A stretch of 64,000 nt of DNA, taken from NCBI GenBank assembly GCA_964611095.1, contig CAZSWJ010000001.1, positions 31,735-95,734 of the forward strand, in the 5' to 3' direction. This DNA comes from an uncultured Candidatus Peribacteria bacterium. Lineage in GTDB: Bacteria > Patescibacteriota > Gracilibacteria > Peribacterales > Peribacteraceae. The stretch's first letter is position 1. Every line of letters begins with the position of its first letter. Below the pieces are notes generated by a model that was given only the letters and a program-made list of their open reading frames with translations, searched no databases and was not told the origin of the DNA. Of the stretch, positions 3,176 to 54,926 are shown piece by piece. The translations under genes were made by a program, and so were the position numbers.

Positions 3176-4054
3176 ATGTTGCAGCTGCAGCCCGATTTTT
3201 TGCTCCGGCCCAAGACGACGATGCGTATCGGCGGCACGGCCAAGCAGTACGCCATGCTCGAGTCGCGCGAGGACGCGGAAGAGGCGATGCGATATTCCGT
3301 GGAGCACAACCTGAAATTCCTGCCTCTCGGCAGCGGATCGAACACGATTTTTTCAGGTGAAGGTGTGAACGCCCTCGTCGTGCAGGTGAAGCATTCCTCC
3401 GTCGTCGTCGATCACCACTCGGTCACCGTGGGTGCGGGAAAAAACTTGCCGATGCTCATCAACGAACTCGCGGAACTTGGTCTGGATCTTTCGGCACTCA
3501 CCGGAATTCCGGGCACGGTGGGCGGTGCCGTCTTCGGCAATGCGGGACAAGGACCGAAAGGAGTATGGATCGACAGTTTCGTGACGTCCGTCACGGCGCT
3601 CGTCGATGGCGAATGGCAAACATTCGGCAAAGACGACTGCGATTTTTCGTACCGCGAAAGCATCTTCAAGCACATGGCGGCCCAGGGTTCGTATCCGCTC
3701 ATTTTTGAGGTGAAACTCGCCGTTCCGAATGACGATGCGGCGCTCATCAAAGCCAATATCCAGGCATTGCTCAAAAAGCGCATCGAGACGCAGCCGCACC
3801 TCAAAACCGCAGGCTCGTGCTTCAAGGCCGTGGGTGGAACACCCGCGTGGCAGCTCATCGATGATGCCGGACTCCGCGGACACAAAGTCGGCGGCGTCCA
3901 GATCGCCGAGAAGCATGCGAACTTCCTGCTGAACGTCGGCGAAGCGACGTACACGGACGCGGTCGCGGTCGTAAGCGAGGTGAAGAAAAAAATTCCGGAG
4001 AATCTGGAAGTGGAAATGCGGTTCATCGAGCCGGACGGCTCGCTCAAGTTTTAA
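3176..4054 (+). CDS. murB: UDP-N-acetylenolpyruvoylglucosamine reductase
   Basis: 292 aa with RIGG, GSGSN, GIPGTVGGAVFGNAG, FSYRES and AGSCFK motifs typical of MurB. Confidence 0.9.
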   Translation: MLQLQPDFLLRPKTTMRIGGTAKQYAMLESREDAEEAMRYSVEHNLKFLPLGSGSNTIFSGEGVNALVVQVKHSSVVVDHHSVTVGAGKNLPMLINELAELGLDLSALTGIPGTVGGAVFGNAGQGPKGVWIDSFVTSVTALVDGEWQTFGKDDCDFSYRESIFKHMAAQGSYPLIFEVKLAVPNDDAALIKANIQALLKKRIETQPHLKTAGSCFKAVGGTPAWQLIDDAGLRGHKVGGVQIAEKHANFLLNVGEATYTDAVAVVSEVKKKIPENLEVEMRFIEPDGSLKF

Positions 4055-4323
4055 GTCGAGGGGTCGTCATCCTCCGCATCAACGTCACGTTGGTTGCTGA
4101 ATAATCGTCGCATCTTTTGAGACAGCACCGCGGCATCGTACCAACTGAAGCCGAGCTCTTTGTCGCCGGCATATCTGCCGAATGTTTGCAGAGTTGCCAT
4201 TCGGCTTTCCGGTGTATCGTCGTACAAGAAAACATAGCGCTCGTCCTCTTTGACGAGAGCGAGGATATTGATGCCGGAACCTTCGGGTGTGCGTGCCATA
4301 AGGAGCGCATGGTCGAGCAGCAC
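4051..4323 (-). CDS. Hypothetical small protein
   Basis: 90-aa ORF (GTG 4323 or ATG 4299) with a non-shadow-like composition. Its stop overlaps the murB stop in TTAA. No family recognised. Confidence 0.45.
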   Translation of the reverse strand: MLLDHALLMARTPEGSGINILALVKEDERYVFLYDDTPESRMATLQTFGRYAGDKELGFSWYDAAVLSQKMRRLFSNQRDVDAEDDDPST

Positions 4324-4444
4324 GTTGTTTCACACAAGAGAAACGGACGGCCAAGGCAACGGTTGGCTTATTTCAGAGAAAAACTCATCATACGAAAAAC
4401 CCCTGCCGCCAATGGACAAGGGTTTTCGTTGTTTGCATTCGTGA

Positions 4445-5296
4445 TTAGAACGGCAGGTCCTCGGGCTTGATCTCGGACTCGTACTTGATGTCCGGAATGT
4501 TGGCCGCAACGGGAGCCGAATTCTCGCTCGGTGCGGACTTGCGGCTCGGCATGGCGACGCCGTCCGTCTGCACGGACGAGGAAGCGTCGGCGTTCTTGCA
4601 GCCGAGCAGCGTGCACTGGTCGGCGATGATCTCGGTGGTGGCGCGCTTCTGGCCTTCTTTCGTTTCCCAGGTGCGCGTTTGCACGCGGCCGGCGACGAAG
4701 ACGCGCTGACCTTTCTTCACGCTCTGCTGCACGGCCTTGGCGAGGTCGCCCCAAATCACCACGTTGTGGAATTCGGTGCGCTCTTTGGTTTCGCCGGTGG
4801 CCTTTTCCTTCCAGCGCTCGTTCGTGGCGACGCCGATGGTGAGCACGTTCTGGCCGCTCGTGGTCGTGCGCATCTCGGGCTCACGAGTGACGTTGCCGAT
4901 AACCTGCGCGCGGTTGATGCAGCTGCCGATGGCGGCGTCCGCGGGAGCCTCGCGCTGACCGTCCTTCGGATCCAAGAGAATCAGATCCATGGCGACGATC
5001 TTGGTCTTACTGCGCTTCTCTTTGCTCGTGGTGTCTTCCCACGCATCGGTCTGCAAGCGTCCGGAAACGAACAATTGCGAACCGGGACGAACGTACTGGC
5101 CGGCGACGTCGGCCATGGCGCCCCAAATGGTGACGGTGTGGAAACTCTTGCCCGAAAGGGTCTCGCCCTTGCTCGTTTGGAACGAGTACGGGACGACGAT
5201 GTTGAGGTCGGTCACACTCGCGCCGCCGGGAGTTTGGCGGACGGTGACGGGTTGTGTTTGGTAGCCGATGATGTCGATCCTGTTCAGAGAGAACAT
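4445..5296 (-). CDS. ssb: Single-stranded DNA-binding protein with two tandem OB folds
   Basis: From ATG 5296 (MFSLNRIDIIGY...). Two SSB-like OB segments (NRIDIIGY..FHTVTIWG..GSQLFVSGRLQT and NRAQVIGNV..FHNVVIWG..GQRVFVAGRVQTR) and an acidic C-terminal tip EDLPF. Confidence 0.85.
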   Translation of the reverse strand: MFSLNRIDIIGYQTQPVTVRQTPGGASVTDLNIVVPYSFQTSKGETLSGKSFHTVTIWGAMADVAGQYVRPGSQLFVSGRLQTDAWEDTTSKEKRSKTKIVAMDLILLDPKDGQREAPADAAIGSCINRAQVIGNVTREPEMRTTTSGQNVLTIGVATNERWKEKATGETKERTEFHNVVIWGDLAKAVQQSVKKGQRVFVAGRVQTRTWETKEGQKRATTEIIADQCTLLGCKNADASSSVQTDGVAMPSRKSAPSENSAPVAANIPDIKYESEIKPEDLPF

Positions 5297-5504
5297 GTCT
5301 GAGGGGGGGAATGGGAGTAGAGGAGGTCTCGGGTTCCCGCGATCGTCGGGAATGAAGCCTTGATACGACGTAAAAATCGTAACGTGAACGAACGTACACC
5401 TCTCATTTTTCTCGATCAACAAGAAGACATTGATCGGAAATTTTTTTGTTTCGTGATACCAAATTTTTGAAGGACTGCGACGGGCGTTTCAGCCGATTGT
5501 TCAG

Positions 5505-5510
5505 TACAAT
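5505..5510 (+). promoter_or_regulatory. Candidate -10 hexamer TACAAT upstream of the five-gene operon
   Basis: TACAAT sits 41 nt before ATG 5552 in a 255-nt divergent intergenic region. Confidence 0.3.
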
Positions 5511-5551
5511 TCCGAGAGTTTCCGTGTCCGCGGGAAAATCGTTCGGTCGGT

Positions 5552-8500
5552 ATGAGTCGTTCACTCTCCTTCAGCATCGCGCTTGCTTCCGTTCTCCTGG
5601 TCACCGCGAGCGCGGGTGCCGAAGCGTTCAAACCCCAAATCCGCGAGACCAAGACGTTCGCCGACTTCACGCAGGGACTCCAAGAAATGCGGGACAACAT
5701 CGAGACCGTGCAGTGCGGAGGATGGGTCGACGATTCCGAGGCGCAGGTGATGGGCGCATCGGTGAAAGGCAAGTTGCCCATTCCCATCATCAGCCCCGAC
5801 ATTCCGGGCCGCTCCAACAAAGGCGCGACGGCCAAAGCCGTCACGGGCCTGGGAGACCGCGGCGAATTCGAATACCCGGACAGTGCGTGGGGCTACAGTT
5901 CGGCGTGCGACATCGTGGAGTACAACGGTAAGCCGATGCACGACGACGATCTGGCAAAACTGGGGATAGATCTGAAAATCAATGAAGATGGCAGCGTGAA
6001 AATGGTCGGCGGCAGTGGCGAGATCGACATCAATCCGTTCGCCTGGTGCATCCGCATGGACAAGGCAACGCCCAAGTACTGCAAACGCCTCTTCGACGCC
6101 TACAAGCAACTCTCGGCAATCGCCCCCCGCCCCGATCCTGAAGCCCTGTGCCCGTGCGCCGATGCGCTCAATGAGTGTCCGCCGCGCCCCCCCAAGCGCT
6201 ACTGCTTCGATGCGTTCGAAGACGGTGACGAAGGCGGGCCGTACTCGTTCGTGTGTCACGGAACGAGCGACAAGAAAGACAAGGTCACGACGACCTTCCC
6301 CGACGCGCCGCCGCAAGACCGCACGTGTCGCACGACCTGGGAACCCGAGTTCAAGAACAAGATGACGGAGTGTTCTGCGACGGACGTGTTCGATGATGCC
6401 GGTAATTACCTCGGCAAAAACGTGAGCGTCAACGTTCCCGGCGAGCACCTGGCCGTGGCAAGCTCGTACTACCGTCACTATGCGCAGGACTATCACGTCC
6501 CGGGCATCACCGTGAAAGCGTTCAGTGACGGCACCGCGGAAAAAATCATCAAAGAGTGGAAAGTTCGCGCCGAGTGTTACGAGTACTACAAAGAAGAAGA
6601 TCCGAAGCAAACCATCACGAGCATGGAGGACGAGCAGTGCGAATTCATCATCGCCACGCCCGACGAGCAGAGCCCGGACAAGCCGCAGTGGCCGCCGGGC
6701 GAGGGTTACCGGCAGAAACAAGACTACAAACCCGACCCGGTGAAAGTGCAGGAACCGCCGCGCCAAAACCGCGACACGCCCGAACCGTGGAAGGCCGACA
6801 CGAAGACGAACCTCAACATGATCGACATGGAAAAACTGAAGGAGAAGCAAAAAGATTTCGAAGATCCGTCCGACATCAGCCAGGTCCTCGGCGCGCTTCT
6901 GCCCACGCGTCAGACGGCGAGCAAAACCGTGAGTGCCAATGCGCGCACCGACATGTTCGACGACACCGCCGAGCGAGGCTTCAGCAAATTCTGGGAAGAG
7001 CAGCAGCGCGAACTCCTCAAAATGACGGCCGATCCGCAGACGCGCCTCATCATGCCGGCGCGCTTCCTCGTGGGACTTGCCAGCACCGATCCGCTCTACG
7101 ATCTCGTCCGCGGGGTCGTTTCGCGCTCCGACGGCACGGTGGAAATCGCGCTGAAGGGCGGACTCGAGGATCTCGGCAGCGTGCTGACATCCTTCCAGAG
7201 AACCTACATCGCTCCTCTCCGCGAGGTGCGCATCCCCATCCTGGTGCCGCTCATCTCGGTGGAGGAAATCGACGCGCGGATTTTCGACTGGAAGCAGTGG
7301 CAACTCGCCGAAAAGAAAGACGCCGCGAATCCGGCGTCGCCCCGTGCATCGCTCGACGGTGAAGCGGAACCGCTCATCCAAAAATTGGAGAGTTACAAGA
7401 CGATCATCGGCAAAGAGCGCGAGCTCCGTGGCGCGCTCGCCAAGCTCCTCGTGAAACTCTTCGGACCGGAGAAAGAAATCCGGGAGTACTTCGCGCAGTG
7501 GTACAAGATGAACACCGATCTGCTCGTGCAGGCCGCGCAGCGCTCCGTGCAGCGCAGGGAGCTCCAGCGCATTTGGAAACTGACACAGCAATCCATGCTC
7601 CAGGCCGACGAGTGCCAGATGCTCTGGTGCGCGAATAACCGTTACTCGGTGCCGGTGTACTCGCTCCTCGACAACTGGTGGCAGGAGGAGGGATCGGAAG
7701 GCAGCGGACGCGATCCCGGGTACAAACCCAAGTCGCTCAAGGAAGTGGGCTACGTTCAACCCCCGGATTTGCTCTTCGATTTCTCCGACGTGCGCTTCCC
7801 GCGCGACCCGCTGCGCGTCCCAGTGCTGGAGCCCATCATCGTGAAGGTGAAGCTGCCGTCGCCGCCGCTCATCGGCCAGCACCCCGAAGCGGCCGAACTC
7901 TTCCCCGACCTTCCCACGCTTCCCGGCGCCGATATTTTCTCGTCGTTCACGCCGCCGACGACCGACTTGCCTCCTCCCAAGCGCATCACGCTTCCGCCGA
8001 CCGTGGACTTGGACAAGGCCAAGGACATGCTTCGCGAGATCCGCAAAAAGATCGACGGAAAATCCATCGATGAACAAAAAATTGAGGAAGACGAACTCAA
8101 GGACAACCCCAAGGCCGCGGAGGAAAATTTCGCCATGGATCGAAAGAGCATGCGCGGTGCGTACTGCCGTTTCCCGCCGAGCATCGTCATTCCTCCCGAC
8201 CAACAGGAAGAGAGCGGCAACCCCGCCAAAATCATCCACGTCGAGAACGATCTCAAGGAACGTTTGGCGCGCCTGTTCTCGCGTTGGATGCCCGAGCGCA
8301 AGGAGGACAACGCCGGTCGCGTGGCGAGACTCCGCACCGAGGGGCCCAAGTCCGATTGTTTTGAGGACGTGCTGTGCTACATCCTTCCGCCCGAGAAAAA
8401 CGTTTTCGCGACGTGGCAGTGGTTCATGCCCAAGGGACCGGGCGCCGACTTCACCGGCATCGCCGACGACATAAAGTCGCAAACGCTTCCCGAGGAAGAT

Positions 8501-8593
8501 CAGAACCCGTACCAAGCGACGATGGAAACGCTGAAGAAAATTTTCCCGAATATCACGCTGCCGATTCCGGTCGATCCCCTGCCTCCGTTCTGA
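5552..8593 (+). CDS. Large secreted Cys- and Pro-rich protein, unknown function
   Basis: 1013 aa. Signal peptide MSRSLSFSIALASVLLVTASAGAEA. Sensible composition, unlike the Arg/His-rich antisense ORF. First gene of a coupled operon. Confidence 0.8.
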   Translation: MSRSLSFSIALASVLLVTASAGAEAFKPQIRETKTFADFTQGLQEMRDNIETVQCGGWVDDSEAQVMGASVKGKLPIPIISPDIPGRSNKGATAKAVTGLGDRGEFEYPDSAWGYSSACDIVEYNGKPMHDDDLAKLGIDLKINEDGSVKMVGGSGEIDINPFAWCIRMDKATPKYCKRLFDAYKQLSAIAPRPDPEALCPCADALNECPPRPPKRYCFDAFEDGDEGGPYSFVCHGTSDKKDKVTTTFPDAPPQDRTCRTTWEPEFKNKMTECSATDVFDDAGNYLGKNVSVNVPGEHLAVASSYYRHYAQDYHVPGITVKAFSDGTAEKIIKEWKVRAECYEYYKEEDPKQTITSMEDEQCEFIIATPDEQSPDKPQWPPGEGYRQKQDYKPDPVKVQEPPRQNRDTPEPWKADTKTNLNMIDMEKLKEKQKDFEDPSDISQVLGALLPTRQTASKTVSANARTDMFDDTAERGFSKFWEEQQRELLKMTADPQTRLIMPARFLVGLASTDPLYDLVRGVVSRSDGTVEIALKGGLEDLGSVLTSFQRTYIAPLREVRIPILVPLISVEEIDARIFDWKQWQLAEKKDAANPASPRASLDGEAEPLIQKLESYKTIIGKERELRGALAKLLVKLFGPEKEIREYFAQWYKMNTDLLVQAAQRSVQRRELQRIWKLTQQSMLQADECQMLWCANNRYSVPVYSLLDNWWQEEGSEGSGRDPGYKPKSLKEVGYVQPPDLLFDFSDVRFPRDPLRVPVLEPIIVKVKLPSPPLIGQHPEAAELFPDLPTLPGADIFSSFTPPTTDLPPPKRITLPPTVDLDKAKDMLREIRKKIDGKSIDEQKIEEDELKDNPKAAEENFAMDRKSMRGAYCRFPPSIVIPPDQQEESGNPAKIIHVENDLKERLARLFSRWMPERKEDNAGRVARLRTEGPKSDCFEDVLCYILPPEKNVFATWQWFMPKGPGADFTGIADDIKSQTLPEEDQNPYQATMETLKKIFPNITLPIPVDPLPPF

Positions 8594-8595
8594 TC

Positions 8596-9327
8596 ATGCG
8601 ACGCTTCCTCGTCACCGCATTGGCACTTCTGCTCCTCGCGCCTCCGGCGTACGCCGCCGACAAGCCCGACCAGGGTGCGTGCTTCGAGCGCGTGAGCAAG
8701 GATTTCAAGGCCATCAACGCGGAGTACCGCTCGGTGCTCCTCGGCAGTCGCCGCGACAAAGACGGAAAATTCGCCGTGCTCACGGGCGGCTTCACCGACA
8801 AGCTTCGCGTCGGCATTTTCGAGACGAAGGGTCGCGAATCATCCGAGCTCATCGACCCTGCACTCCAGAGTTTCCGCGTCTACCGTTGCAAGATGACGTC
8901 GGTCTGCGAGGCGATGAGCCGATCGTTCGGCAGCGACGACAAGGCACCGTTCCCGGTACAACCGCTCGGCTGCGAAGAGGTGCAACTCAGCCGCTATCCC
9001 GAGTGTTACTTCGGCGGCACGGACCCGAACACCACCACCGAAGCCGATGCATCCGACCAGCTCTCGGTGCTCGACATGGTCACGGCGTGCACGCAGTTCG
9101 TCGATGACAGCGTGCAGTCCGAGGCCGCCGTCCTGCGTCTCATCGTGGGTTACGACGCGGGCTACCGTTCGCTCCTGCAATTCGCCGGAATGATGGACTG
9201 GATGATGGAAGGTTTCCCGGAGCAAACCATCCGCGCCATCGCCGACATGGTGAACTTGCTCGGAAAATTGCATCAAATCCCGTGTTACATCGGTCAGTGC
9301 GATCTGCCGAGCACCGAGTCGCTCTAA
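8596..9327 (+). CDS. Secreted Cys-rich protein, unknown function
   Basis: ATG 8596 is 2 nt after the upstream stop. Signal MRRFLVTALALLLLAPPAYA. 8 Cys in the mature part. C-terminal CYIGQC motif. Confidence 0.75.
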   Translation: MRRFLVTALALLLLAPPAYAADKPDQGACFERVSKDFKAINAEYRSVLLGSRRDKDGKFAVLTGGFTDKLRVGIFETKGRESSELIDPALQSFRVYRCKMTSVCEAMSRSFGSDDKAPFPVQPLGCEEVQLSRYPECYFGGTDPNTTTEADASDQLSVLDMVTACTQFVDDSVQSEAAVLRLIVGYDAGYRSLLQFAGMMDWMMEGFPEQTIRAIADMVNLLGKLHQIPCYIGQCDLPSTESL

Positions 9328-9332
9328 ACTTC

Positions 9333-10289
9333 ATGGAACTCTTCACGACCATCAGAAACGGCACGACACGGATGACGGACATCGCCCGCCGTCACCAGCT
9401 CCTCACGCTGACGATCGTGGCATTGCTTGCTGCCGCGGGCTCGGCACGGTTCCTCACGGGCCAATTGGTCCCGAGCAACACGAGCGTCACCGCGGGCACG
9501 TCGTCATCCAGGCCCGAAGACCTGCGCGTCTGCGACGACTCGGTGACGATTTTCAAGGACGACCGCACGCTCGAAAAAGCGATGAAACGTTTGAAAGAAC
9601 GCATGTCGGGCATCGTCGATGAACGCGAAAAATTCTTCCGCACGCCGTCGGAGTGGAAGTGCGGACCGAACCAGGAGCCGTCGTTCCCGCAACTTGACCG
9701 ACTCGCCGACGATCTTCCCGGTTGGCACTACCAATTCACGCCGTCGGGCCAACTCGATTCCCCCATCGCCCTCAAGAAGCCCGTCACGTTCGACGCATTC
9801 TCGGCCGTCGCGCTCGAATTGCAACGTGAGTACGAGTGCAAGCTCACCAAGTTCCAGGACGGCGTGATCGGCGAAGTGGGCGTGAACGAAGACGTCAGCG
9901 AGCCCACGCAGTTCTGCTGCCAGACGCAAGGCGGCGAAGACAGTTGCGTCGTGAAAACCCCCGAGACCGTGTGTGCGGGTGCCGCCACGGAAGATCCGCA
10001 ATGCGACGATCAATGCAAAGTCATCCTGTTCACGACCGATTTGACGACGCGTCCCGAGGTCTACCACTTCGAACAAACCGTCGAACGCCAGCGCTCGCGC
10101 CTGGCCTTGGAGCGCACCCTCCAGACGCTGCGTTCGTTCGAGATGAACTACATCGTGGCGCGTCAGCTCATGTGTTACCAGCGCGCGTCCCTGGACCTGA
10201 AGAATGAGCTCAACCTGCTCGCCGACACCACGAGCTGCATTCCGAAAATCTGGAATGCCGTCACGTCCATCCACGATCCCAAGCAATGA
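9333..10289 (+). CDS. N-terminally anchored Cys-rich protein, unknown function
   Basis: ATG 9333 is 5 nt after the upstream stop. TM/signal anchor LLTLTIVALLAAAGSA. Cys clusters such as QFCCQTQGGEDSCVV. Confidence 0.7.
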   Translation: MELFTTIRNGTTRMTDIARRHQLLTLTIVALLAAAGSARFLTGQLVPSNTSVTAGTSSSRPEDLRVCDDSVTIFKDDRTLEKAMKRLKERMSGIVDEREKFFRTPSEWKCGPNQEPSFPQLDRLADDLPGWHYQFTPSGQLDSPIALKKPVTFDAFSAVALELQREYECKLTKFQDGVIGEVGVNEDVSEPTQFCCQTQGGEDSCVVKTPETVCAGAATEDPQCDDQCKVILFTTDLTTRPEVYHFEQTVERQRSRLALERTLQTLRSFEMNYIVARQLMCYQRASLDLKNELNLLADTTSCIPKIWNAVTSIHDPKQ

Positions 10290-12124
10290 AACGCGCCCTT
10301 CTCCTCATCGGCGTTCTTGCCGCGGCGCTTCCCGTCGGTGCGCTCGCGCAACAAGATCCGGGGATTTACGACATGTTCTACGGCGAGGCCGACAGTGCGA
10401 GGTTCAACGCCAAGCCGTCCGAAGATCTGTCCAAGTACCTCATCAAAGAGATGGAGCACTGGCAGACGCGAGGCATTCAGCTGACGTCCGATGATCTTAA
10501 GTCCGCGATCAACGGAAACTTGTGGAACGGCGACGGCACGGGGCTGTGCCAGAACAAAGTCGACATGTCGGGCAAAGCATTCGACTTCGTCGCCGGCGGC
10601 ACGGACGGCGAAAGCTCGTGCATCGTGCTCCAGCAAAACATTCTCGGGCTCCTGCGCTTCGAGCAATCCATCGATCAGCTCGGCAGCGACCTCATCAGCA
10701 TCGCGAACGGCGCGGAGCTCGCCGTGGCCGATGAGCCGCATCGCCCCGTCGACATGGCACGCGTGGCCATGACGCTGCGCCGCGTGTGGATGGGCACGGG
10801 AGCCGCCGTCATTCCGTGGAACGGCGATGCCGATTCCGAAATCGGTGAACTGGAAAATCATTTGAAGTCCGCGGAGAGCAAGGAAAAAATCGTCATGCGA
10901 TTCCGTCACGGGTACTTCCGCGATCAGCGTGAGCAAGATTCGCGCTTCGACGGCATCGGTGACGAGGTGAAAGAAGATCTTAGGAAAATCGCCGAGAAGC
11001 TGCAGATTTCGGGCGATCCGCTCATCGTCGGCATGTTCTCCGTGCCAAAGTTGAAAGTGCCGAATATCGGTTTGTGGGCCCGTAAAGACGACATCGGTTT
11101 GATGTGGGTGTATCCGTCCAAAGTCACGCGCTTCACGTACGAGCCCGCCAAAACCGAGTATCCCAAACTCGTGCAGAACGGCCAATATTTGGCCTACCCC
11201 TTCGCCTACGAAGGGTCGAATCCGCCGAGCGGTGCCGGGATCACATCGCCCGTCTGCAGCCGCATGATGGGACGACAGGGTTACCTGTGTCGCACACTCC
11301 CGCCGCTCAGTGAAAATTGTTCGCGCACGGGGGACGACTCCGCGATTTCGCTCACGAAATGTTCGGAAGGAGAGGAGCAAACGGTGAGCGGGCCTTTGGT
11401 GTGTCCCGGCTTCGACAAGCTGTTCAAGGACACGGGTGTTCCGCTCGCCGACCCCAACAATCCCGGCCGTCTGAACCCCGCGCTGCAGCCCGCCGATACC
11501 CAAGTGCTGTGCAACCCGGAGACGCGCACGCTGTACCAGGACGACATCACGTCGCACGCGTGCTACATCGGCCACTGCCTGGTGCAATCCATGACCAAGG
11601 GCAACACGCTCATCCCGAACAGAAACACCGTCGTCTTGAACGAAGCCACGTCGCCCTACCTCGCGTGCCAGCGCATCGATCCGCAGGTCGGCATCTACAC
11701 CGAAGTCGCCAAGGAAGGCCCGTATCCGCTGCCCGAATACTTGGGGCAGTTCCTGGTGCAAGACTTCGACCGACAGTACTGCGCCAGCAACGGCAACGCG
11801 CCCGAGTCGCTGCCGTCCTTGTGTCGCTTCCTCGACAACCAAACCGCCGCGCTTCCCGACTACGTGCCCCTGTTCCAGGCCATGGCAACGAGCGGCGAAC
11901 AGAGCCGCACCGATCTGCGCCGCATCGCGGTGAACGAGATCGCATCGGCCATCGGCCAGCGCGTGGCGGTGGATCAATCCATCGAAGTGCAGCAGAAAAT
12001 CTTTGCGCGCCTCGCGCACTTCGTGCAGCAGGTCGCCGATCTCGTCCTGGAACTCGACCGAGCTCCGGTCACGCAGACCGCGTGTCCATGGACCGGACCG
12101 TTTGAAACCGTCACGCCGTTTTAG
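10286..12124 (+). CDS. Secreted Cys-rich protein, unknown function
   Basis: 612 aa. ATGA overlap with the upstream stop. Signal MKRALLLIGVLAAALPVGALAQQ. CYIGHC motif at 11561-11578. Confidence 0.8.
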   Translation: MKRALLLIGVLAAALPVGALAQQDPGIYDMFYGEADSARFNAKPSEDLSKYLIKEMEHWQTRGIQLTSDDLKSAINGNLWNGDGTGLCQNKVDMSGKAFDFVAGGTDGESSCIVLQQNILGLLRFEQSIDQLGSDLISIANGAELAVADEPHRPVDMARVAMTLRRVWMGTGAAVIPWNGDADSEIGELENHLKSAESKEKIVMRFRHGYFRDQREQDSRFDGIGDEVKEDLRKIAEKLQISGDPLIVGMFSVPKLKVPNIGLWARKDDIGLMWVYPSKVTRFTYEPAKTEYPKLVQNGQYLAYPFAYEGSNPPSGAGITSPVCSRMMGRQGYLCRTLPPLSENCSRTGDDSAISLTKCSEGEEQTVSGPLVCPGFDKLFKDTGVPLADPNNPGRLNPALQPADTQVLCNPETRTLYQDDITSHACYIGHCLVQSMTKGNTLIPNRNTVVLNEATSPYLACQRIDPQVGIYTEVAKEGPYPLPEYLGQFLVQDFDRQYCASNGNAPESLPSLCRFLDNQTAALPDYVPLFQAMATSGEQSRTDLRRIAVNEIASAIGQRVAVDQSIEVQQKIFARLAHFVQQVADLVLELDRAPVTQTACPWTGPFETVTPF

Positions 12125-12127
12125 CTC

Positions 12128-13768
12128 ATGAAGAAATTTTTCCTCACCCTCGGCATTCTCCTGCTCCCGGCGACCGCCTCGGCGCAAGCGCTCTCGCCGT
12201 GGGTGCAGGGCGTCCTCGATCGTGCCGACGAAGGCATTTCCATGGCCGGAGGACTGGGTCCCGCCATCTGTGACAACGAAACACTTCAGTCCGAAATCAG
12301 TGACAACCGTTCGTTGGCCCGCTCCATGCTCGACGCCACGACGCAGCTCGAACAAGAGTCGCAGCTGCTTGCCGAACGCACGACGTGTTTCGAGTACGAT
12401 CGTGCGTTGCTGCGGCAAAAGCTCGTGCAGATTCAGAACGAAATGAACTCCGCCATCGACGCGTGTCTCATCAACAAGAACCGCATGCTGCGCGTGAACT
12501 ACCAGTTCGTCGCCGAGGCGCTCCAGTCGCTGCTCCGCGGCGGCATCGACCCCACGGTCCGTGACGATCGTCTGCAGTACAAATACGCGTTTCACGACAA
12601 AACTCTTCTCGACCAGCAAATCGATGAACAGATCGTGGAAAACTCCACGGCGCCGCTGTGTCCGTTCACCTCCGATTACGCGCCGCGTTCCGTGGCGTAC
12701 ATTCCGACGGGCGTCGGCAATGCGGCAGCGGCCGGCGATGCGTCGTTTGACGTGCGGAGCTTCGGCTGCGACGTGACCACACTCGGCCGGATCGACATCG
12801 CGCCCGTGGACGCGGAGGCCGCCGTGTTCCGCGATTTCCTGGGCCAAACGCAGGAGTTCGCGCTCACCGTCTACAACACCGTCAGCCAGGCCGTGCGCAA
12901 CATCGATGACACCATCGGCATCATCACCGGCATCAAGAAGCCTCGTCCCGATGCCAGGCCCGGCAGCATTCCGCCGCACGAAACGGTGAGCGGATGCCTA
13001 AAGCCCCTCTCCCCCGACCTCAGCTCCATCGATGCCCAGGGCCTGGAGGACCTGCTCGCCGCATACCCGAACTTTTTCGGCCCCGAAAACCTGCGCAACG
13101 ACGGCAACGGCGGCACGACCTACGATCCCAAACAAGGAGAAACGTTGCCCACGGGACTCCTCTTCCAGGCCAGCTTCGACCGCTTCGGCGTCACGCCGGC
13201 GTCGTACGCGCTCGTCCGCTCGTTCGTGGACCGTCGCGAAGCCCTGGGTTACGACAGACCGCTTCCGGGAGGCATGCAGTCGCCGAACAATGAAAACACG
13301 GTGGACACCACGTTCTTCACCGGCGTCATCAACCCTGTGTTGCTCCAGAACGAACTTCGGAACATTTCGTCCAACATCGAACGCGAGACGGGCATTTTGG
13401 ATGCCATCAACCGCGACGCGGCCCAGCGACTCAAAGATGCGTCCATGCCGTTGGAGCAAGCCGTGCAGAACTTGGTGTACGTCACCGACGATTTCCTGCC
13501 CAAGAAGTACGTGCCGCAGCTGACGTTCTTCATGGCCCGTTCGTGCGTCGACGGCTTCTGCCAAGACACGCTCAAGAACGTCGCGCAGCGCATTCTGAAT
13601 CCATACTGCCACCCGTACGTCTCGGGCAAATACATGGATGAAAAAGCGGCCGACAAATGCTTCTGCACGCCCGAATTCGAGAACGAGGATTACTGCAAAG
13701 GTCAGGTCGATACGAGTGACCAACCCGAGGAGGAGTTGCAGTGCGGCGAGAAGTTCCAGCAACAGTAA
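12128..13768 (+). CDS. Secreted Cys-rich protein, unknown function
   Basis: 546 aa. 3-nt gap from the upstream stop. Signal MKKFFLTLGILLLPATASAQ. Cys-rich C-terminus. Confidence 0.8.
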   Translation: MKKFFLTLGILLLPATASAQALSPWVQGVLDRADEGISMAGGLGPAICDNETLQSEISDNRSLARSMLDATTQLEQESQLLAERTTCFEYDRALLRQKLVQIQNEMNSAIDACLINKNRMLRVNYQFVAEALQSLLRGGIDPTVRDDRLQYKYAFHDKTLLDQQIDEQIVENSTAPLCPFTSDYAPRSVAYIPTGVGNAAAAGDASFDVRSFGCDVTTLGRIDIAPVDAEAAVFRDFLGQTQEFALTVYNTVSQAVRNIDDTIGIITGIKKPRPDARPGSIPPHETVSGCLKPLSPDLSSIDAQGLEDLLAAYPNFFGPENLRNDGNGGTTYDPKQGETLPTGLLFQASFDRFGVTPASYALVRSFVDRREALGYDRPLPGGMQSPNNENTVDTTFFTGVINPVLLQNELRNISSNIERETGILDAINRDAAQRLKDASMPLEQAVQNLVYVTDDFLPKKYVPQLTFFMARSCVDGFCQDTLKNVAQRILNPYCHPYVSGKYMDEKAADKCFCTPEFENEDYCKGQVDTSDQPEEELQCGEKFQQQ

Positions 13769-13804
13769 AAGAGACCCTGTTTCCGGCGTTCTTTCGGTGT
13801 TACC

Positions 13805-16800
13805 TTGGCATCGATGAAGCCCTCCGATTTCGTCCATCTGCACTGCCACAGCACGTTCTCGCTGCTGGAGGGTCTGCCGAGCCCGGAAGAAATCGTGCTC
13901 CGCGCCAAAGAACTCGGCCAAACGGCCGTGGGACTTGCCGACAAGGGTTACACGTACGGACTCATCGACTTCTACAAATCCGCAAAGAGCGCGGGTCTTT
14001 CGCCGATCTTGGGCCTGGAAACGTACGTCGCCGCGCGCACGCGCCACGACAAAGAAAGTTCGTCCGATACGCGCCGGTATCCGCTCGTGCTTTTGGCATC
14101 GAACGAAGAGGGATATTTGAACCTTTTGGAACTCGCCACGCGCGCCGCACTCGAGGGCATGTACTACAAGCCGCGCGTCGACGCCGAGCTGCTCAAGAAA
14201 TTCGGAAAAGGACTCATCGCGCTCACCGGTCCCATCGGCGGCGCCATTCCGCAGGCGGCCATGGCCGAGGACTTCGAGCGCGTGAAGCTCCTCACGGAAC
14301 AGTACCGTTCGTTCTTCGGATCCGAAAATTTGTACTTCGAACTGAACGATCTCCCCAACGTCCCCGGCCAAGCCGAGGTGAACCAACAGCTCATCCGTTT
14401 TGGAAAAGAGCTCGGTGTGCCCGTCGTGGCCACCTGCAACAGTCACTACTGTCGCGCCGAAGATGCCGAGGCCCACGACGTGCTCCTCTGCATTCAGAAG
14501 AACGCCAACGTCGGCGACAGCAGCCGTTTCTCCATGCGCGACAGCGACTTCTCCATGCGCCCGTTCGACGAGATGGAGAAGGCATTCGCACACGTCCCCG
14601 AGGCGCTCGAGAACACGCGCGTCATCGCCGATCGTTGCAAGCTGAAGATTCCGTTCGGTGAGTACCGCATCCCGAAGTTTCCCGTCGCCGCGGGACAAAC
14701 CGAAGAATCGCTCCTCAAGGAGCAGTGTGAAGCGGGCCTGCAGAAGCGCTACGGCGCTCAAATAAAAGGAGACCCCGCGCGCGAGAAAGTCATCCGTGAC
14801 CGCCTGGAGTACGAACTCGGCGTCATCAAGACCATGGGCTTCTCGGGCTACTTCCTCATCGTCGCCGACTTCGTGCAGGAGGCCAAGCGCCGCGGCATCA
14901 CCGTGGGTCCGGGCCGCGGGTCTGCAGCCGGTTCCATCGTGAGTTACGTGCTCGATGTCACCACGCTGGACCCGCTCGAATACGGCCTTCTCTTCGAGCG
15001 ATTCCTCAACCCCGAACGCATCTCCATGCCGGATATCGATATCGACTTCGCCGATACGCGCCGCGACGAAGTGCTGGAGTACGTTCGCCAGAAGTACGGT
15101 GCCGACCGCGTCATCCAGATCTGCACCTTCGGAACGCTGGCCGCTCGTGCCGCCGTGAAAGACGTCGGCCGCGCCTACGGCGTGTCGTTCGCCGAAATGA
15201 ACGCGCTCGCCAAGGTGATTTCCGATCGCCCCGGTACGACGCTCGACGAAGCGCTGGCGACGGATGAACTCAAGGCCGCCATCGAATCCAACGACACGTA
15301 CAAGAAAATTCTGGAAGTCGCGCTCAAGCTCGAAGGCAAAGCGCGCCACGTCTCGGTCCACGCGTGCGGAGTCGTCATCACGCCCGAACCCGCGGTGAAG
15401 TACACGGCGCTCCAGCGCGCTCCCAAGGATGAAGACACCATCATCACGCAGTTCGATGCCAAGCCGCTCGAGGCTCTGGGACTGCTGAAAATGGACTTCC
15501 TGGGCCTCAAGAACCTCACGATCATCCAGACGGCGCTCCTCATCATCGAGCGCATGCACAACGTGAAGATCGACATGAGCACGATTCCGATGAACGACAA
15601 AAAAACGTTCGAGCTTCTGTCGCGAGGCGAGACGACGGGCGTGTTCCAGCTCGAATCCCCGGGCATGCGCCGGTATCTCAAACAACTCAAGCCCACGAAA
15701 TTCGATGACATCACGGCCATGGTGTCTCTGTATCGCCCGGGTCCCATGGATAAAATTCCGGACTACATCAAATGCAAGCACGGTCTCAAAGAAGTCACGT
15801 ATTTGCACCCCGATCTCAAGCCGATTCTGGAGCCGACGTACGGCGTGGGCATCTACCAGGAGCAAATCTTGGAAATGGCCCGCGTGTTCGCCGGATTCTC
15901 GCTCGGAGAAGCCGACTTGCTGCGCCGCGCCATCGGCAAAAAGATCAAGAAAGAGCTCGATGCCCAGCGCGAGAAGTTCATCAAGGGCGCCGTGTCGCGC
16001 GGATACACCGAGAAACTCGCAACGACCCTCTTCGACGACGTCATCACGCCGTTCGCCGGCTACGGTTTCAACAAATCGCACGGAGCCTGTTACGCCCGCA
16101 TCGCCTACGAGACCGCGTATCTCAAGGCGCTCTATCCTACGGAGTTCATGGCGGCTCTCCTGAGCAGCGAGGAGGGCGATACCGATCGCATCTCCATCGA
16201 GATCGAAGAAGCGCGTGCCATGGGCCTCAAGGTGCTTCCTCCGGACATCAACGAGTCACTCGCGAACTTCACGTCGCTCGCCGGCGGCAACATTCGCTTC
16301 GGTTTGCTCGGCGTCAAAGGCGTCGGCGAAAGTTCCATCCGCCAGATCATCGAACTCCGCGAAAAAGAAGGAAAATTCACATCCGTGGAAGACTTTGCGT
16401 CGCGCGTGCCCGCCAAGCTCCTCAATAAAAAACTCCTCGAATCGCTCGCCAAGTCGGGCGCCTTGGACTGCTTCGGCGAACGCGGCGTCCTCGTGGCGCA
16501 GTTCGACAAGATCGCCGAGTACAGCAAGTCGGCCGGCGACGTTGGCGCGTCGCAGACCGACATGTTCGAGTCTCTCGGCAGGGACAGTGCAGGATCGAAG
16601 ATCGAATTCGATCCACAGGATCCCGCGTCGGGATACAAAAAACTGCAGTGGGAAAAAGAGACCTTGGGTCTCTATGTTTCCAGTCATCCCCTTGCCGGTC
16701 TCCGCAAGTACATCAGCAAAAAGGCGCGTCTCATCGACAGTCTTTCGGGCGACGACACGGGCCGAAAAATCACCGTGGCTGGCATCGTGGAACAATCCAA

Positions 16801-51743: not shown

Positions 51744-52226
51744 TCACAAGCTTATTTCTCTCACGTGCGATGACGAGAGATCAGTCACGACCTTTGCGTA
51801 GCGGTCGAGGGCCGTGGTCTTTCGGCCGTGCTCCAAGAGTGAAACGCACGGCCGCACGAGATCGCTCCACAGTGCGCGGTACTCCTGCTCCGGCAAGCTG
51901 CACGCATCGATGCGTGCAATGATCGCGGGGGCGATTCGGTAGTACCGCTGCACGAGTGCGATGCCTCCGGGAGTCCGAACGACATACTCGTCGCGGAATT
52001 TCCGGAGCGTGCGGAGCTCATGGCAATCGTCGGGCAACCCGCGAGTGACGACGCATGCCGTCGTCAGAAAGCAACAGCCTGGAGGTTCCGCATACTCGTC
52101 CCAAACTCTCCCTGTCTGCCGACATATCGTGCAGGGGACGAGCACACTTTCTTGATGGCTTTCGGCTGGGGCTATGCGCACCCAACCTTTTCCATCGCAG
52201 TTCGAACATGGTACGTGCGCACCCAT
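51744..52226 (-). CDS. DnaJ-type zinc-finger (CxxCxGxG x2) protein with CFLTTAC...DDCxELxxLRxFRD module
   Basis: 160 aa. Strong SD AAGGAG 7 nt before the ATG. Paralog of 54021..54494. Confidence 0.75.
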   Translation of the reverse strand: MGAHVPCSNCDGKGWVRIAPAESHQESVLVPCTICRQTGRVWDEYAEPPGCCFLTTACVVTRGLPDDCHELRTLRKFRDEYVVRTPGGIALVQRYYRIAPAIIARIDACSLPEQEYRALWSDLVRPCVSLLEHGRKTTALDRYAKVVTDLSSSHVREISL

Positions 52227-52300
52227 AGTTCATCTCCTTCAACATAAGCCTGTGATGCCAAGCCCCTTGCGGGGAACTCCACGATGTAGAGTCAAATAGT

Positions 52301-52328
52301 AAAATACTATCAAATTTACTTAAGTCAA
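52301..52328 (-). promoter_or_regulatory. Candidate promoter TTGACT-N16-TATTTT
   Basis: On the minus strand upstream of the copy-A gene. Conserved in copy B. Confidence 0.4.
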
Positions 52329-52377
52329 TAAATCACATCATTGATACCGCTATTGATCATTTTTTTAAAAGCCGTCG

Positions 52378-52436
52378 CGTCAAAGCGACTCTTTTGATGG
52401 AAAGGAGAGTCCATGAGAGGAAAACGCAGTTTTCCT
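52378..52436. repeat. Partial third copy (~59 nt) of the cassette-end element
   Basis: Matches 53839-53898 with about 3 mismatches. It abuts the DKNYY gene stop codon. Confidence 0.75.
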
Positions 52437-53477
52437 TTACTCAGGCTTCTGCCAACTACTAGGGTCAAAGCCATCCGGACTAACGTTCGGGATCGGTTTT
52501 CCGAGATAAAAAACGTGTTTCTTATCTGCGGCAAAGTACTTTTGATCGGGTAGCAAGTGAAATGAATTGGTATCAGCATCAACAACAATAAAAGAATTGC
52601 ATGCCTTTCCTTGTTCGATGAACGCTGAATTTATTACATATACGCGATTTTTGTCTTTTGCATAATAATCATTCAGGGCTTGAAATGTTTTTGCATCCGC
52701 ATTGTTTATGCGGAGCTGATTACATATAACGCTAGTGTCGTCTTTTGCTAGAAAATTTGTGAACACTACTACTGACTTTGGTGCCAAAATTGTGAGCTTG
52801 CCCTCATAGTAGACATGCATTGAATCATGTGCCCATCCACCTCCTCCACGTATCGAGTTAGTTATTATCGTAAAGGTGTAGGGGTTTGCCTCTTTTAAAG
52901 GCAGATCATCAAAGTACACTTTTCTTAAATCCGTAGAATACCCTGCATTCAGAATTTTAAATTTTTTTGCGTTTGCCCCCCTTAAAATTCTGCCCTCAAA
53001 AAAAATATTTCGGGGGCTTATGCCATATCGCTCACTCTCTTTAAATTTTTTAGGATCGACGCCTCGCAACAGGTGCCAAGAAAAATAAACATGTTTTTTG
53101 TCTTTCGCATAGCTATCCATTAATTCGAAGCTATCTGGATCAGCTAAGGGCAAAATCTTATCACCAACATAAACGTTCTTTGAATCTTTAGCATAGAGAT
53201 TGCCATATTCAAGTACCTTGAAAGTCGCAGGATTTGCATGGGGTACGAGTGTGAGGCAATCCATTGTTGGATCTTTTGCAAGGCAAGAGCTCAAATAAAC
53301 CCTTCCATCAAATTTGTAAAATAAGTACCTATCGTCATAATAATTAAATGGAATATTAAGGGGGATTGGAAGCTCTTGCGCTACAATGCTGTTTGGCTTA
53401 AATGTGAGTAATAGTAGTGCCATTAACGCAGGAAGGACCCTAAGTTTCTTTGACGTTATGAAGTTCATGTAACGCAT
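52437..53477 (-). CDS. DKNYY-repeat family protein, low GC
   Basis: 346 aa. Repeated YAKDKxxVY motifs and a signal peptide. Strikingly AT-rich relative to the window. Confidence 0.75.
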   Translation of the reverse strand: MRYMNFITSKKLRVLPALMALLLLTFKPNSIVAQELPIPLNIPFNYYDDRYLFYKFDGRVYLSSCLAKDPTMDCLTLVPHANPATFKVLEYGNLYAKDSKNVYVGDKILPLADPDSFELMDSYAKDKKHVYFSWHLLRGVDPKKFKESERYGISPRNIFFEGRILRGANAKKFKILNAGYSTDLRKVYFDDLPLKEANPYTFTIITNSIRGGGGWAHDSMHVYYEGKLTILAPKSVVVFTNFLAKDDTSVICNQLRINNADAKTFQALNDYYAKDKNRVYVINSAFIEQGKACNSFIVVDADTNSFHLLPDQKYFAADKKHVFYLGKPIPNVSPDGFDPSSWQKPE

Positions 53478-53945
53478 ATTAGCTCGTATCAGATTGAATT
53501 AGGGACTGGATTTGGCCGCCGAAAATCTTATTGGCCATTTTTTGTTATACGTAAGCCAAAAAATGTGTTCTGTAGTTAAGTAGAACGATATTACAATAAG
53601 GGCTTATCTTATTGCAGGATCACTGTGTTGAAATTGAAATGTATATATAAAAAGCACAATCCTTATTTCCAATACCACTTGAGTGAGATTTATTGAGACG
53701 GTTCTCTTCATTTGCACTGAAATCCTTCACCCCCTTAAGAAGTTTAGTCAGGGTTGGATTATGAGAAGCCATATGTCGTGCGACGCCATCTACGAGACGG
53801 CAAAAAACTGTCGCTTGACGTGGGTCTCGTGGGCCCCACGTCAAAGCAACTCTTTTGATGGAAAGGAGAGTCCATCAGAGGAAAACGCAGTTTTCCTTGA
53901 TGCGATCATTCAAGATTTTCTCGAATGTACTTGGGCAATGGCATC

Positions 53946-54020: not shown

Positions 54021-54494
54021 TCAGGAGAGATCAGTCACGACCTTTGCGTAGCGGTCGAGGGCCGTGGTCTTTCGGCCACGCTCCAAGAGTGAAACGCACG
54101 GCCGCACGAGATCTTTCCACAGTGCACGGTAGTCCTGCTCCGGCAGGTTGCCCGCATCGATGCGGGCAATGATCGCCGGCGCGATTCGGTAGTAGCTCTG
54201 GACGAGTGCGATGCCACCCGGAGTCCGAACGACGTACTCGTCGCGGAATTGCCGGAGAGTACGGAGTTCATGACAGTCGTCGGGCAACCCTCGAGCGATG
54301 ACACATGCCGTTGTCAGGAAGCACCAGCCTTCACTTTTGGCATACTCGTCCCAAACCTTCCCCGTCTGATGGCAGACAGTGCAGGGGACCTGGCGGTTTC
54401 CTGGATTGCTCCGATCTTCATCGCATGCAACTCCCCAGACCTCCCGCTTCCAGCCTGTTCCGTTGCAGAACGGACACTCTACATACGCTCCCAC
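54021..54494 (-). CDS. Paralogous zinc-finger / CFLTTAC-module protein
   Basis: GTG 54494 is preceded by AAGGAG at 6 nt. The N-terminus MGAYVECPFCNGTGW parallels copy A. The C-terminal two-thirds are nearly identical to copy A. Confidence 0.7.
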   Translation of the reverse strand: MGAYVECPFCNGTGWKREVWGVACDEDRSNPGNRQVPCTVCHQTGKVWDEYAKSEGWCFLTTACVIARGLPDDCHELRTLRQFRDEYVVRTPGGIALVQSYYRIAPAIIARIDAGNLPEQDYRALWKDLVRPCVSLLERGRKTTALDRYAKVVTDLS

Positions 54495-54568
54495 GATCGT
54501 CTCCTTAGAAGTTATGCCTGTGATGCAAAGCCCCTTTCGGGGAACTCCACGATGTAGAGTCAAATAGT

Positions 54569-54729: not shown

Positions 54730-54815
54730 TGGCGGAGCCAACGGGACTCGAACCCGCGACCTCTTCCGTGACAGGGAAGCGCTCTAACCATCCCGCGGCC
54801 GCGGGATACGGCTCC
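54730..54815 (-). pseudogene. tRNA-Asp copy whose D-stem 5' half is replaced by the palindrome TCCCGCGGCCGCGGGA
   Basis: Identical to the intact copy except that GCTCAGC is replaced by a 16-nt palindrome (54791-54806). The D-stem cannot form. Confidence 0.6.
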
Positions 54816-54849: not shown

Positions 54850-54926
54850 TGGCGGAGCCAACGGGACTCGAACCCGCGACCTCTTCCGTGACAGGGAAGC
54901 GCTCTAACCAGCTGAGCTACGGCTCC
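54850..54926 (-). tRNA. tRNA-Asp (anticodon GTC), CCA encoded
   Basis: GGAGCCGTAGCTCAGCTGGTTAGAGCGCTTCCCTGTCACGGAAGAGGTCGCGGGTTCGAGTCCCGTTGGCTCCGCCA folds as a canonical cloverleaf. Confidence 0.9.

Follow-up and report, generated by a model that had tools for sequence, protein, structure and literature searches.

The 64,000-nucleotide (nt) stretch of an uncultured Candidatus Peribacteria genome analysed here (the window) carries, between ssb and dnaE, five consecutive plus-strand genes, g1 to g5, which are predicted to encode four exported proteins and one bitopic membrane protein (Table 1). An initial annotation of the same DNA had delimited these open reading frames (ORFs), their junctions and a 255-nt spacer ahead of them, and had read them as an operon-like, translationally coupled set. 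Recomputation reproduced the lengths, coordinates, junctions and spacer, and genes called separately on the public source contig include the same five. The site between ssb and dnaE was likewise recovered, both in the window and, as far as the contigs reach, in related loci.

Table 1. Coordinates of the five-gene block and of features discussed in the text (window positions unless a locus or protein is named; aa, amino acids)
Feature	Position	Strand	Description
ssb	4445–5296	−	divergent upstream neighbour of g1
ssb–g1 intergenic region	5297–5551	.	255 nt, divergent; presumed promoter region of the block
g1	5552–8593	+	1013 aa; predicted exported protein
g1/g2 junction	8591–8598	+	TGAtcATG, 2-nt gap
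g2	8596–9327	+	243 aa; predicted exported protein
CYIGQC loop	9283–9300	+	g2 residues 230–235
g2/g3 junction	9325–9335	+	TAAacttcATG, 5-nt gap
g3	9333–10289	+	318 aa; predicted bitopic protein
g3/g4 junction	10286–10289	+	ATGA, 4-nt overlap
g4	10286–12124	+	612 aa; predicted exported protein
g4 insertion hot-spot	11404–11512 (approx.)	+	residues ~373–409
CYIGHC loop	11561–11578	+	g4 residues 426–431
g4/g5 junction	12122–12130	+	TAGctcATG, 3-nt gap
g5	12128–13768	+	546 aa; predicted exported protein
Example of the g4 insert	L034:10001–12511		P0116 residues ~400–625
g3 orthologues with lipoprotein-type signal	L037:4544–5293, L040:9237–10004, L041:5013–5726		

Coding status and expression signals

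The GC content at third codon positions (GC3) of the five plus-strand frames is 0.78–0.80, matching that of murB, ssb and dnaE. Comparison with a relative of 85–89% protein identity gave ratios of non-synonymous to synonymous substitution (dN/dS) of 0.08–0.12 across the five genes at dS values of 0.66–1.05 (dN/dS of 0.081 for g1 and 0.102 for g5, with murB comparable at 0.105). On the strength of these GC3 and dN/dS values, the plus-strand frames are the coding frames, and they have been held under strong purifying selection. Two long ORFs lie on the opposite strand, one of 984 aa facing g1 (5561–8515, minus strand) and one of 934 aa facing g4 and g5 (10175–12979, minus strand); neither is a gene, both being shadow frames opposite GC3-rich coding sequence.

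As no match to the sigma-70 consensus was found within positions 4000–14500, the promoter of the block is assigned to the divergent 255-nt spacer only presumptively. Neither a terminator-like site on the plus strand inside the block nor a plus-strand terminator in the 45-nt gap between g5 and dnaE was detected. Co-transcription of dnaE with the block may therefore occur, but dnaE is no fixed member of the unit, since three related loci have other genes inserted behind g5. The starts inside the block are not preceded by a Shine-Dalgarno-like motif, and wherever genes were called, adjoining genes of the block either overlap or stand no more than 5 nt apart. Taken together, the tight junctions and the lack of such motifs make it likely that translation of g2 to g5 is coupled to that of the preceding gene and would deliver the subunits in fixed proportion.

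Export signals, membrane anchor and cysteines

Signal peptides were called by a heuristic requiring a basic n-region, an h-region of 10–15 residues, a small-x-small cleavage site and no further transmembrane (TM) segment. Each of the five proteins proved to have exactly one hydrophobic segment, located at the N-terminus, in agreement with the Sec-type signal peptide or N-terminal anchor previously ascribed to every member of the set. Under this heuristic, g1, g2, g4 and g5 qualify as substrates of Sec and type I signal peptidase, with the predicted signal peptides MSRSLSFSIALASVLLVTASAGA/EA in g1 (cleavage AGA/EA), MRRFLVTALALLLLAPPAYA/AD in g2 (AYA/AD), MKRALLLIGVLAAALPVGALA/QQ in g4 (ALA/QQ) and MKKFFLTLGILLLPATASA/QA in g5 (ASA/QA). 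Signal-peptide-like N-termini recur across most orthologues, and the predicted mature N-termini are conserved just past the cleavage sites, e.g. ALSPWVQ in g5 and APFxPK in g1.

The N-terminus of g3 consists of RRHQ followed by LLTLTIVALLAAAGSARFL, with a Kyte-Doolittle value of 1.91 over residues 23–42. It has the hallmarks of a bitopic (type II) protein, namely a short basic cytoplasmic N-terminus and an uncleaved-looking anchor at residues ~23–42, and this arrangement is kept in 29 orthologues. In three others (from loci L037, L040 and L041; Table 1), a lipoprotein-type signal (LTSC, TASC and LLSC, respectively) replaces the TM anchor. The use of two different attachment modes, TM helix and lipobox, for the same subunit argues that membrane tethering of the set may be the job of g3. 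The five window proteins themselves contain no lipobox ([LVI][ASTVI][GAS]C), no Tat motif, no HExxH, no LPx[TSA]G motif and no C-terminal hydrophobic segment; nor was a class III prepilin signal found in their first 60 residues, or a match to a Pfam pilin family.

Cysteine accounts for 1.8, 3.3, 3.5, 2.3 and 2.4% of residues in g1 to g5, respectively. Measured against the mean of 1.67% reported for the Peribacteria proteome (PMC4736985), g2 to g5 are enriched 1.4- to 2.1-fold and g1 is average, so that the label 'Cys-rich', applied to all five in the initial annotation, is an overstatement when set against the Cys-rich proteome of this lineage. Across all lineages, cysteine is the most conserved residue class: positions conserved to at least 95% comprise 8 of 8 in g2 (over 36 orthologues), 13 of 14 in g4, 8 of 13 in g5, 8 of 18 in g1 and 5 of 11 in g3. 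This pattern may be the signature of disulfide-stabilised extracytoplasmic folds. The eight cysteines of g2, a number also given in the initial annotation, would be consistent with four disulfides, and one disulfide-formation protein has been reported for the Peribacteria lineage (PMC4736985).

Protein architecture and search for relatives

Each protein combines a conserved core with a variable part, as is typically seen where an assembly buries its conserved contacts and exposes its variable domains. In g1, the N-terminal ~300 aa contain cysteines and vary, and the C-terminal ~700 aa form the conserved core, which holds a Pro-rich stretch and the pair C688-x4-C693; distant orthologues can be aligned only from residue ~305 onwards. 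The most conserved portion of the extracytoplasmic domain of g3 is its C-terminal ~75 aa. In g4, a conserved CPWTGPF motif close to the C-terminus follows a 64-residue helix (528–591), and g5 features a conserved mature N-terminus (ALSPWVQxVLxRAD), a loop closed by C473-x4-C478 and, towards its end, a region rich in Cys.

None of the five proteins matched Pfam, NCBIfam, PHROGs or PADLOC, and family profiles of the five retrieved nothing from the PDB sequences (best E-values 0.18–1.4), the noise there being made up of coiled coils (EsxB, SNAP-25, nanobodies). Extending the Pfam search to 30 g2, 30 g3 and 28 g5 orthologues and to 10 distant g4 homologues gave no match either. In a search of 5.8 billion proteins, g4 returned 45 homologue clusters, all full-length and lacking a Pfam domain, of which those with labels are Candidatus Peribacteria or Peribacteraceae. 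The 45 homologue clusters of g1 likewise contain no Pfam domain, their labelled members all being Peribacteria, and precomputed Pfam assignments were empty for all 90 g1 and g4 clusters. These searches support the statement that the proteins have no recognisable domains.

Because g2 and g4 share a CYIG(Q/H)C motif, the initial annotation had tentatively regarded them as distant paralogues. The positions of the motif are correct and the loop is deeply conserved, C[YF]IGQC being invariant in g2 and the consensus of the whole g4 superfamily. The proposed kinship was rejected: hhalign pairs the two families with a probability of 20% and over residues 1–55 only, i.e. over the signal peptides. Paralogy within the set as a whole was discarded in the same way, as all ten hhalign pairs among the five families reduced to N-terminal signals or short chance stretches. 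Conserved Cys-x4-Cys pairs also occur in g5 (CVDGxC) and g1 (CxxxWC), and we read the six-residue motif as a probable recurrent small disulfide loop, not as a sign of common descent.

For g4, AlphaFold2 produced a poor model from 33 close sequences (pLDDT 61) and a confident one from a 90-sequence superfamily alignment (pLDDT 82.5, pTM 0.68). In the latter, the N-terminal half is helical, with a 36-residue helix at 112–147, and is accompanied by small beta elements, a Cys-rich middle and the C-terminal helix 528–591. Foldseek, a comparison suggested at the outset, found no fold match for the confident model in the PDB (best E = 1.7) or BFVD (best E = 0.61) at a threshold of E ≤ 1e-3; relatives of this fold may still exist among uncharacterised proteins.

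Conservation across Peribacteria

The synteny search that the initial annotation had called for bore out a conserved block. When each GTDB species was represented by one genome and scanned, 30 loci with the block came up, 29 of them titled Peribacteria, Peribacterales or Peribacteraceae and one Candidatus Peregrinibacteria. By tblastn, the order murB, ssb (minus strand), g1 to g5, dnaE, sua5 holds in the 30 loci as far as contigs reach; dnaE directly follows g5 save in the three loci with inserted genes, and a partial gene set occurs in none of the 30. Leaving out the near-identical relative L004 (84–89% identity across g1 to g5, 95% in dnaE), identities to the window proteins range from 30 to 58% for g1 to g5 vs. 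69–83% for dnaE.

More remote relatives emerged when 1.84 billion representatives were searched exhaustively with a profile of the g4 family; at E ≤ 1e-3 this collected 217 proteins, ~26 close and ~190 distant. The distant members are mostly 780–900 aa long, with E-values of 1e-48 to 1e-19 among those listed. A further search with a profile of the g4 superfamily returned just 44 close relatives that were already known and no new taxonomy. Genomic context was taken for eight distant g4 proteins, with DNA available for seven (loci L034 and L036–L041). All seven loci contain the same five-gene block in the same order, with every junction a gap of at most 3 nt or an overlap of 1–11 nt; ssb lies upstream and dnaE downstream as far as the contig reaches, usually within a wider PPIase-gltX-murB ... 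sua5-nrdR-aspS neighbourhood. In the eighth context, a 2.3-kb fragment lacking DNA, g4 overlaps the next gene. At the distant loci, the window proteins match their positional counterparts at 19–35% identity (E-values 1e-8 to 1e-114), dnaE being 63–69% identical. Two of the distant genomes are those of Ca. Peribacteria RIFCSPHIGHO2_01_FULL_51_9 and a Candidatus Peregrinibacteria bacterium. In the complete genome of Ca. Peribacter riflensis, the block corresponds to ORFs 963–967 (1030, 279, 263, 821 and 521 aa), which follow murB (961) and ssb (962) and are all annotated as 'hypothetical protein'. The block is therefore among the most rigidly conserved gene arrangements of the lineage.

Compared with dnaE or ssb, g1 to g5 evolve three to four times faster. 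After removal of the dnaE signal, the residuals of pairwise distances correlate among the five proteins (r = 0.35–0.73), and the same residuals of g1 to g5 gave r = −0.32 to 0.14 against ssb and murB, which is suggestive of co-evolution within the set.

Two of the insertions between g5 and dnaE are described here for the record. In L005 (13650–17081), a secreted 1143-aa beta-helix/LamG-like protein is encoded between the two genes and overlaps the g5 stop by ATGA. In L027 (12082–13241), the same place is taken by an RRM-type RNA-binding protein and a membrane protein.

A zincin-like insert in distant g4 orthologues

Distant g4 orthologues accommodate a Cys-rich insert of ~200 aa at a hot-spot (Table 1), on either side of which the N- and C-terminal regions with their long helices stay alignable. 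The insert displays the motif HE[LM]xHAxQ, followed ~24 residues downstream by CCxxE. Of 129 distant orthologues, 61 contain HExxH, as against none of 63 close ones, and in the remaining distant orthologues HE[LM]xHAxQ and CCxxE are degenerate jointly. The window g4 and all 63 close relatives are devoid of the insert. When isolated, the inserts gave sub-threshold Pfam matches to Peptidase_M76 (E-values 6.5e-4 to 0.025; best score 19.9 bits vs. a gathering cut-off of 25.2) and to other zincin families; a profile of the insert had no match in the PDB.

This insert provides the single functional hint in the system, in the form of a putative metalloprotease motif. As it is missing from the window g4 and its 63 close relatives, and as the motif has been lost in about half of the carriers, protease activity, if real, is confined to an optional module and cannot be what the block as a whole is conserved for.

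Other features of the window

Some features around the block deserve mention in their own right. The ssb product, 283 aa long, has two OB/SSB domains in tandem and an acidic tail ending in ...DLPF; the two-OB architecture is kept in all Peribacteria loci, and Pfam SSB is found twice in the L038 orthologue. Such an architecture is known from the SSB of Deinococcus-Thermus. Between murB and ssb lies an ORF of 82 aa (4051–4299, minus strand), which was called as a gene on the source contig, has no Pfam match and, among the 30 related loci, is recovered by tblastn in L007 and L009 alone; L038 has a 63-aa gene at the same position.

Far downstream of the block, positions 52250–53850 form an island of low GC content (35–41% vs. 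~59% around it). The island encodes a 346-aa protein with a signal peptide and repeated 'AKDxKxVY'-type motifs (52437–53477, minus strand) and is flanked by two paralogous Cys-rich genes (51744–52226 and 54021–54563; ~160 and ~180 aa), whose products have in common a zinc-ribbon-like N-terminus (CxxCxGxG) and are almost identical over their C-terminal halves. Adjoining the island is a tandem pair of tRNA-Asp(GTC) genes (54730–54802 and 54850–54926). The arrangement resembles foreign DNA inserted into a duplicated gene next to tRNA genes.

Interpretation and alternatives

These observations are best explained if the block is an operon that is inherited vertically and restricted to Candidatus Peribacteria (a class of the phylum Peregrinibacteriota within the candidate phyla radiation). 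As to its product, we lean towards a previously undescribed extracytoplasmic complex of five proteins, tethered to the membrane and stabilised by disulfides. In such a complex, g1, g2, g4 and g5 would be exported via Sec and lose their signal peptides by cleavage, fold outside the cytoplasm around their conserved disulfides, and assemble on g3, which would tether them to the outer face of the cytoplasmic membrane by an N-terminal TM helix here and by a lipid anchor in other lineages. Translational coupling, through gaps of 2–5 nt or an overlap in the absence of Shine-Dalgarno motifs, would fix the proportions of the subunits. The conserved cores may provide the inter-subunit contacts, which in g4 would fall to the long N- and C-terminal helices, and the variable parts, i.e. 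the N-terminal third of g1 and the insertion site of g4, are presumably exposed. The most likely role of the assembly would be that of a constitutive envelope or cell-surface structure, not of an accessory adhesin, because the genes are universal in the genomes examined, single-copy and fixed in a housekeeping position at dN/dS of ~0.1, and because repeats, adhesin domains and strain-level variation are lacking.

None of the findings named beforehand as speaking against an exported multi-protein set, be it a match to a known family, a lack of export signals or a lack of co-conservation, was made. Other points do weigh against the complex. Its function is deduced from genomic context, evolution at three to four times the pace of dnaE would also fit host-facing surface proteins, and the residual correlations could in part reflect shared saturation of fast-evolving proteins instead of co-evolution. 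Moreover, expression, export, disulfide formation, the tether role of g3 and physical association are all judged here from sequences.

The initial annotation had favoured an adhesion, attachment or pilus-like apparatus, i.e. a surface adhesin or fibre with which presumed episymbionts dock on a host cell. Besides their export and fast evolution, the proteins would suit such a role through the variable domains inserted in g1 and g4 between lineages and through the beta-helix/LamG-like protein appended to g5 by an ATGA overlap in L005; in addition, a symbiotic way of life with an investment in surface proteins has been proposed for Peribacteria (PMC4736985). However, the window proteins bear no class III prepilin signal, LPxTG motif, lipobox or C-terminal anchor, and no pilus ATPase, usher, chaperone, sortase, adhesin domain or repeat domain is encoded in or adjoining the block. 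The block is a single-copy set under strong purifying selection, in the same housekeeping position in all genomes examined, and not a variable surface locus; the giant Cys-rich proteins that differ between strains and have been listed for attachment in the lineage are other genes. We thus regard attachment as unlikely, and nothing supports a pilus. A different possibility is that the five proteins act independently, each secreted or anchored and merely co-transcribed without forming a physical complex, as operons can also bring together proteins whose link is functional and not physical. Yet gene order and tight junctions are invariant down to 19–35% identity, evolutionary rates are correlated among the five, the mature N-termini are conserved and no lineage with a subset of the genes was found among the loci examined, which leaves this alternative rather improbable.

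Still more doubtful is an extracytoplasmic proteolytic or processing complex in which g4 was ancestrally a zinc metalloprotease and the other four its partners or substrates. The HE[LM]xHAxQ motif with its conserved downstream Glu in close to half of the distant orthologues, the joint degeneration of the two elements elsewhere and the weak Peptidase_M76 and other zincin matches would fit such an origin; the absence of the insert and of any HExxH from the window g4 and its close relatives, the loss of the motif in about half of the insert-bearing orthologues, the Pfam score below cut-off and the empty PDB search count against it. Finally, the long antisense ORFs could be taken to mean that the whole block is an artefact, namely frames left open by chance at high genomic GC, a faulty assembly or mobile DNA. 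Conservation over 30 loci and dN/dS of ~0.1 in the plus-strand frames refute this reading, full-length orthologues are present in 37 of 37 related loci, GC content equals that of the flanks and the borders show no repeats, integrase or tRNA; its probability is negligible. Prophage, mobile-element and defence readings were rejected as well, given the lack of a PHROG or PADLOC match, the flank-like GC content and the fixed housekeeping position.

Comparison with known systems

Large Cys-rich extracellular proteins have been described from Ca. Peribacter riflensis (Anantharaman et al. 2016, Table S4; PMC4736985). They are 580–3860 aa long, contain 2.4–11.4% Cys (above 5% in 17 of 20), carry weak DUF4215/pappalysin-like repeats, vary between strains and were proposed to serve attachment (PMC4736985). 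The present block resembles them in lineage, signal peptides, predicted extracytoplasmic location, a presumed use of Cys for rigidity and the lack of annotation. In contrast, its proteins have 1.8–3.5% Cys and no repeats, and are invariant, single-copy and fixed in a housekeeping place; the riflensis counterparts, ORFs 963–967, are missing from Table S4 and not discussed in that paper. DUF4215 had no match in the window proteins, the only trace being one weak flag on g5 of L037.

PilMNOPQ, Tol-Pal, Mce and GspC/L/M are operon-encoded periplasmic or envelope assemblies with a bitopic or lipoprotein tether. The block shares their logic, in that a coupled operon encodes one tethered subunit and several Sec-exported partners with long helices suited to bundling. 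It has no sequence or fold similarity to them, and it lacks a cytoplasmic ATPase, a polytopic membrane component, a secretin and an OmpA-like domain.

Residues 178–244 of g4 aligned to EsxB chains of the WXG100 family at E = 0.18, which is not significant; both are helical. Unlike WXG100 proteins, g4 has a Sec signal, 612 aa and 14 cysteines, and there are no type VII secretion genes nearby. The insert of distant g4 orthologues recalls Peptidase M76 (Atp23) and other gluzincins in its HExxH, the Glu ~24 residues downstream and its conserved cysteines. It differs in that the window g4 is without the domain, scores stay below the cut-off, about half of the carriers have a decayed motif and no PDB match exists.

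Significance

No description of the block was found in the searchable literature mentioning Peribacteria. Since none of the five families relates to a curated family and g4 has no known fold, we rate the block as lying outside the known kinds of system, with its function being a matter of deduction. At 8.2 kb in a genome of about 1 Mb, it stands out by combining a class-wide fixed place and gene order, strong purifying selection and export-type products with the absence of any curated relative. A more far-reaching and more tentative possibility is that it specifies a lineage-defining, membrane-tethered envelope machine of entirely new folds, with five disulfide-locked subunits needed by all Peribacteria, which might link the membrane to a wall or S-layer, or serve as a docking or feeding interface to a host, and which in some lineages would include an optional zincin module. 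It would then be one of few multi-protein envelope apparatuses that are conserved in the candidate phyla radiation and lack a counterpart in cultured bacteria.

The block is confined to one uncultured class of ultra-small bacteria, and experimental testing will be hard. It nevertheless offers a well-delimited target for structural biology, metaproteomics and cryo-electron tomography, and a possible genomic marker of Peribacteria. The candidate phyla radiation makes up a large share of bacterial diversity, and how its members build their envelopes and contact hosts is largely unexplained because most lineage-specific proteins lack annotation. If the block truly encodes an envelope or host-interface machine, it would constitute a new kind of bacterial cell-surface apparatus.

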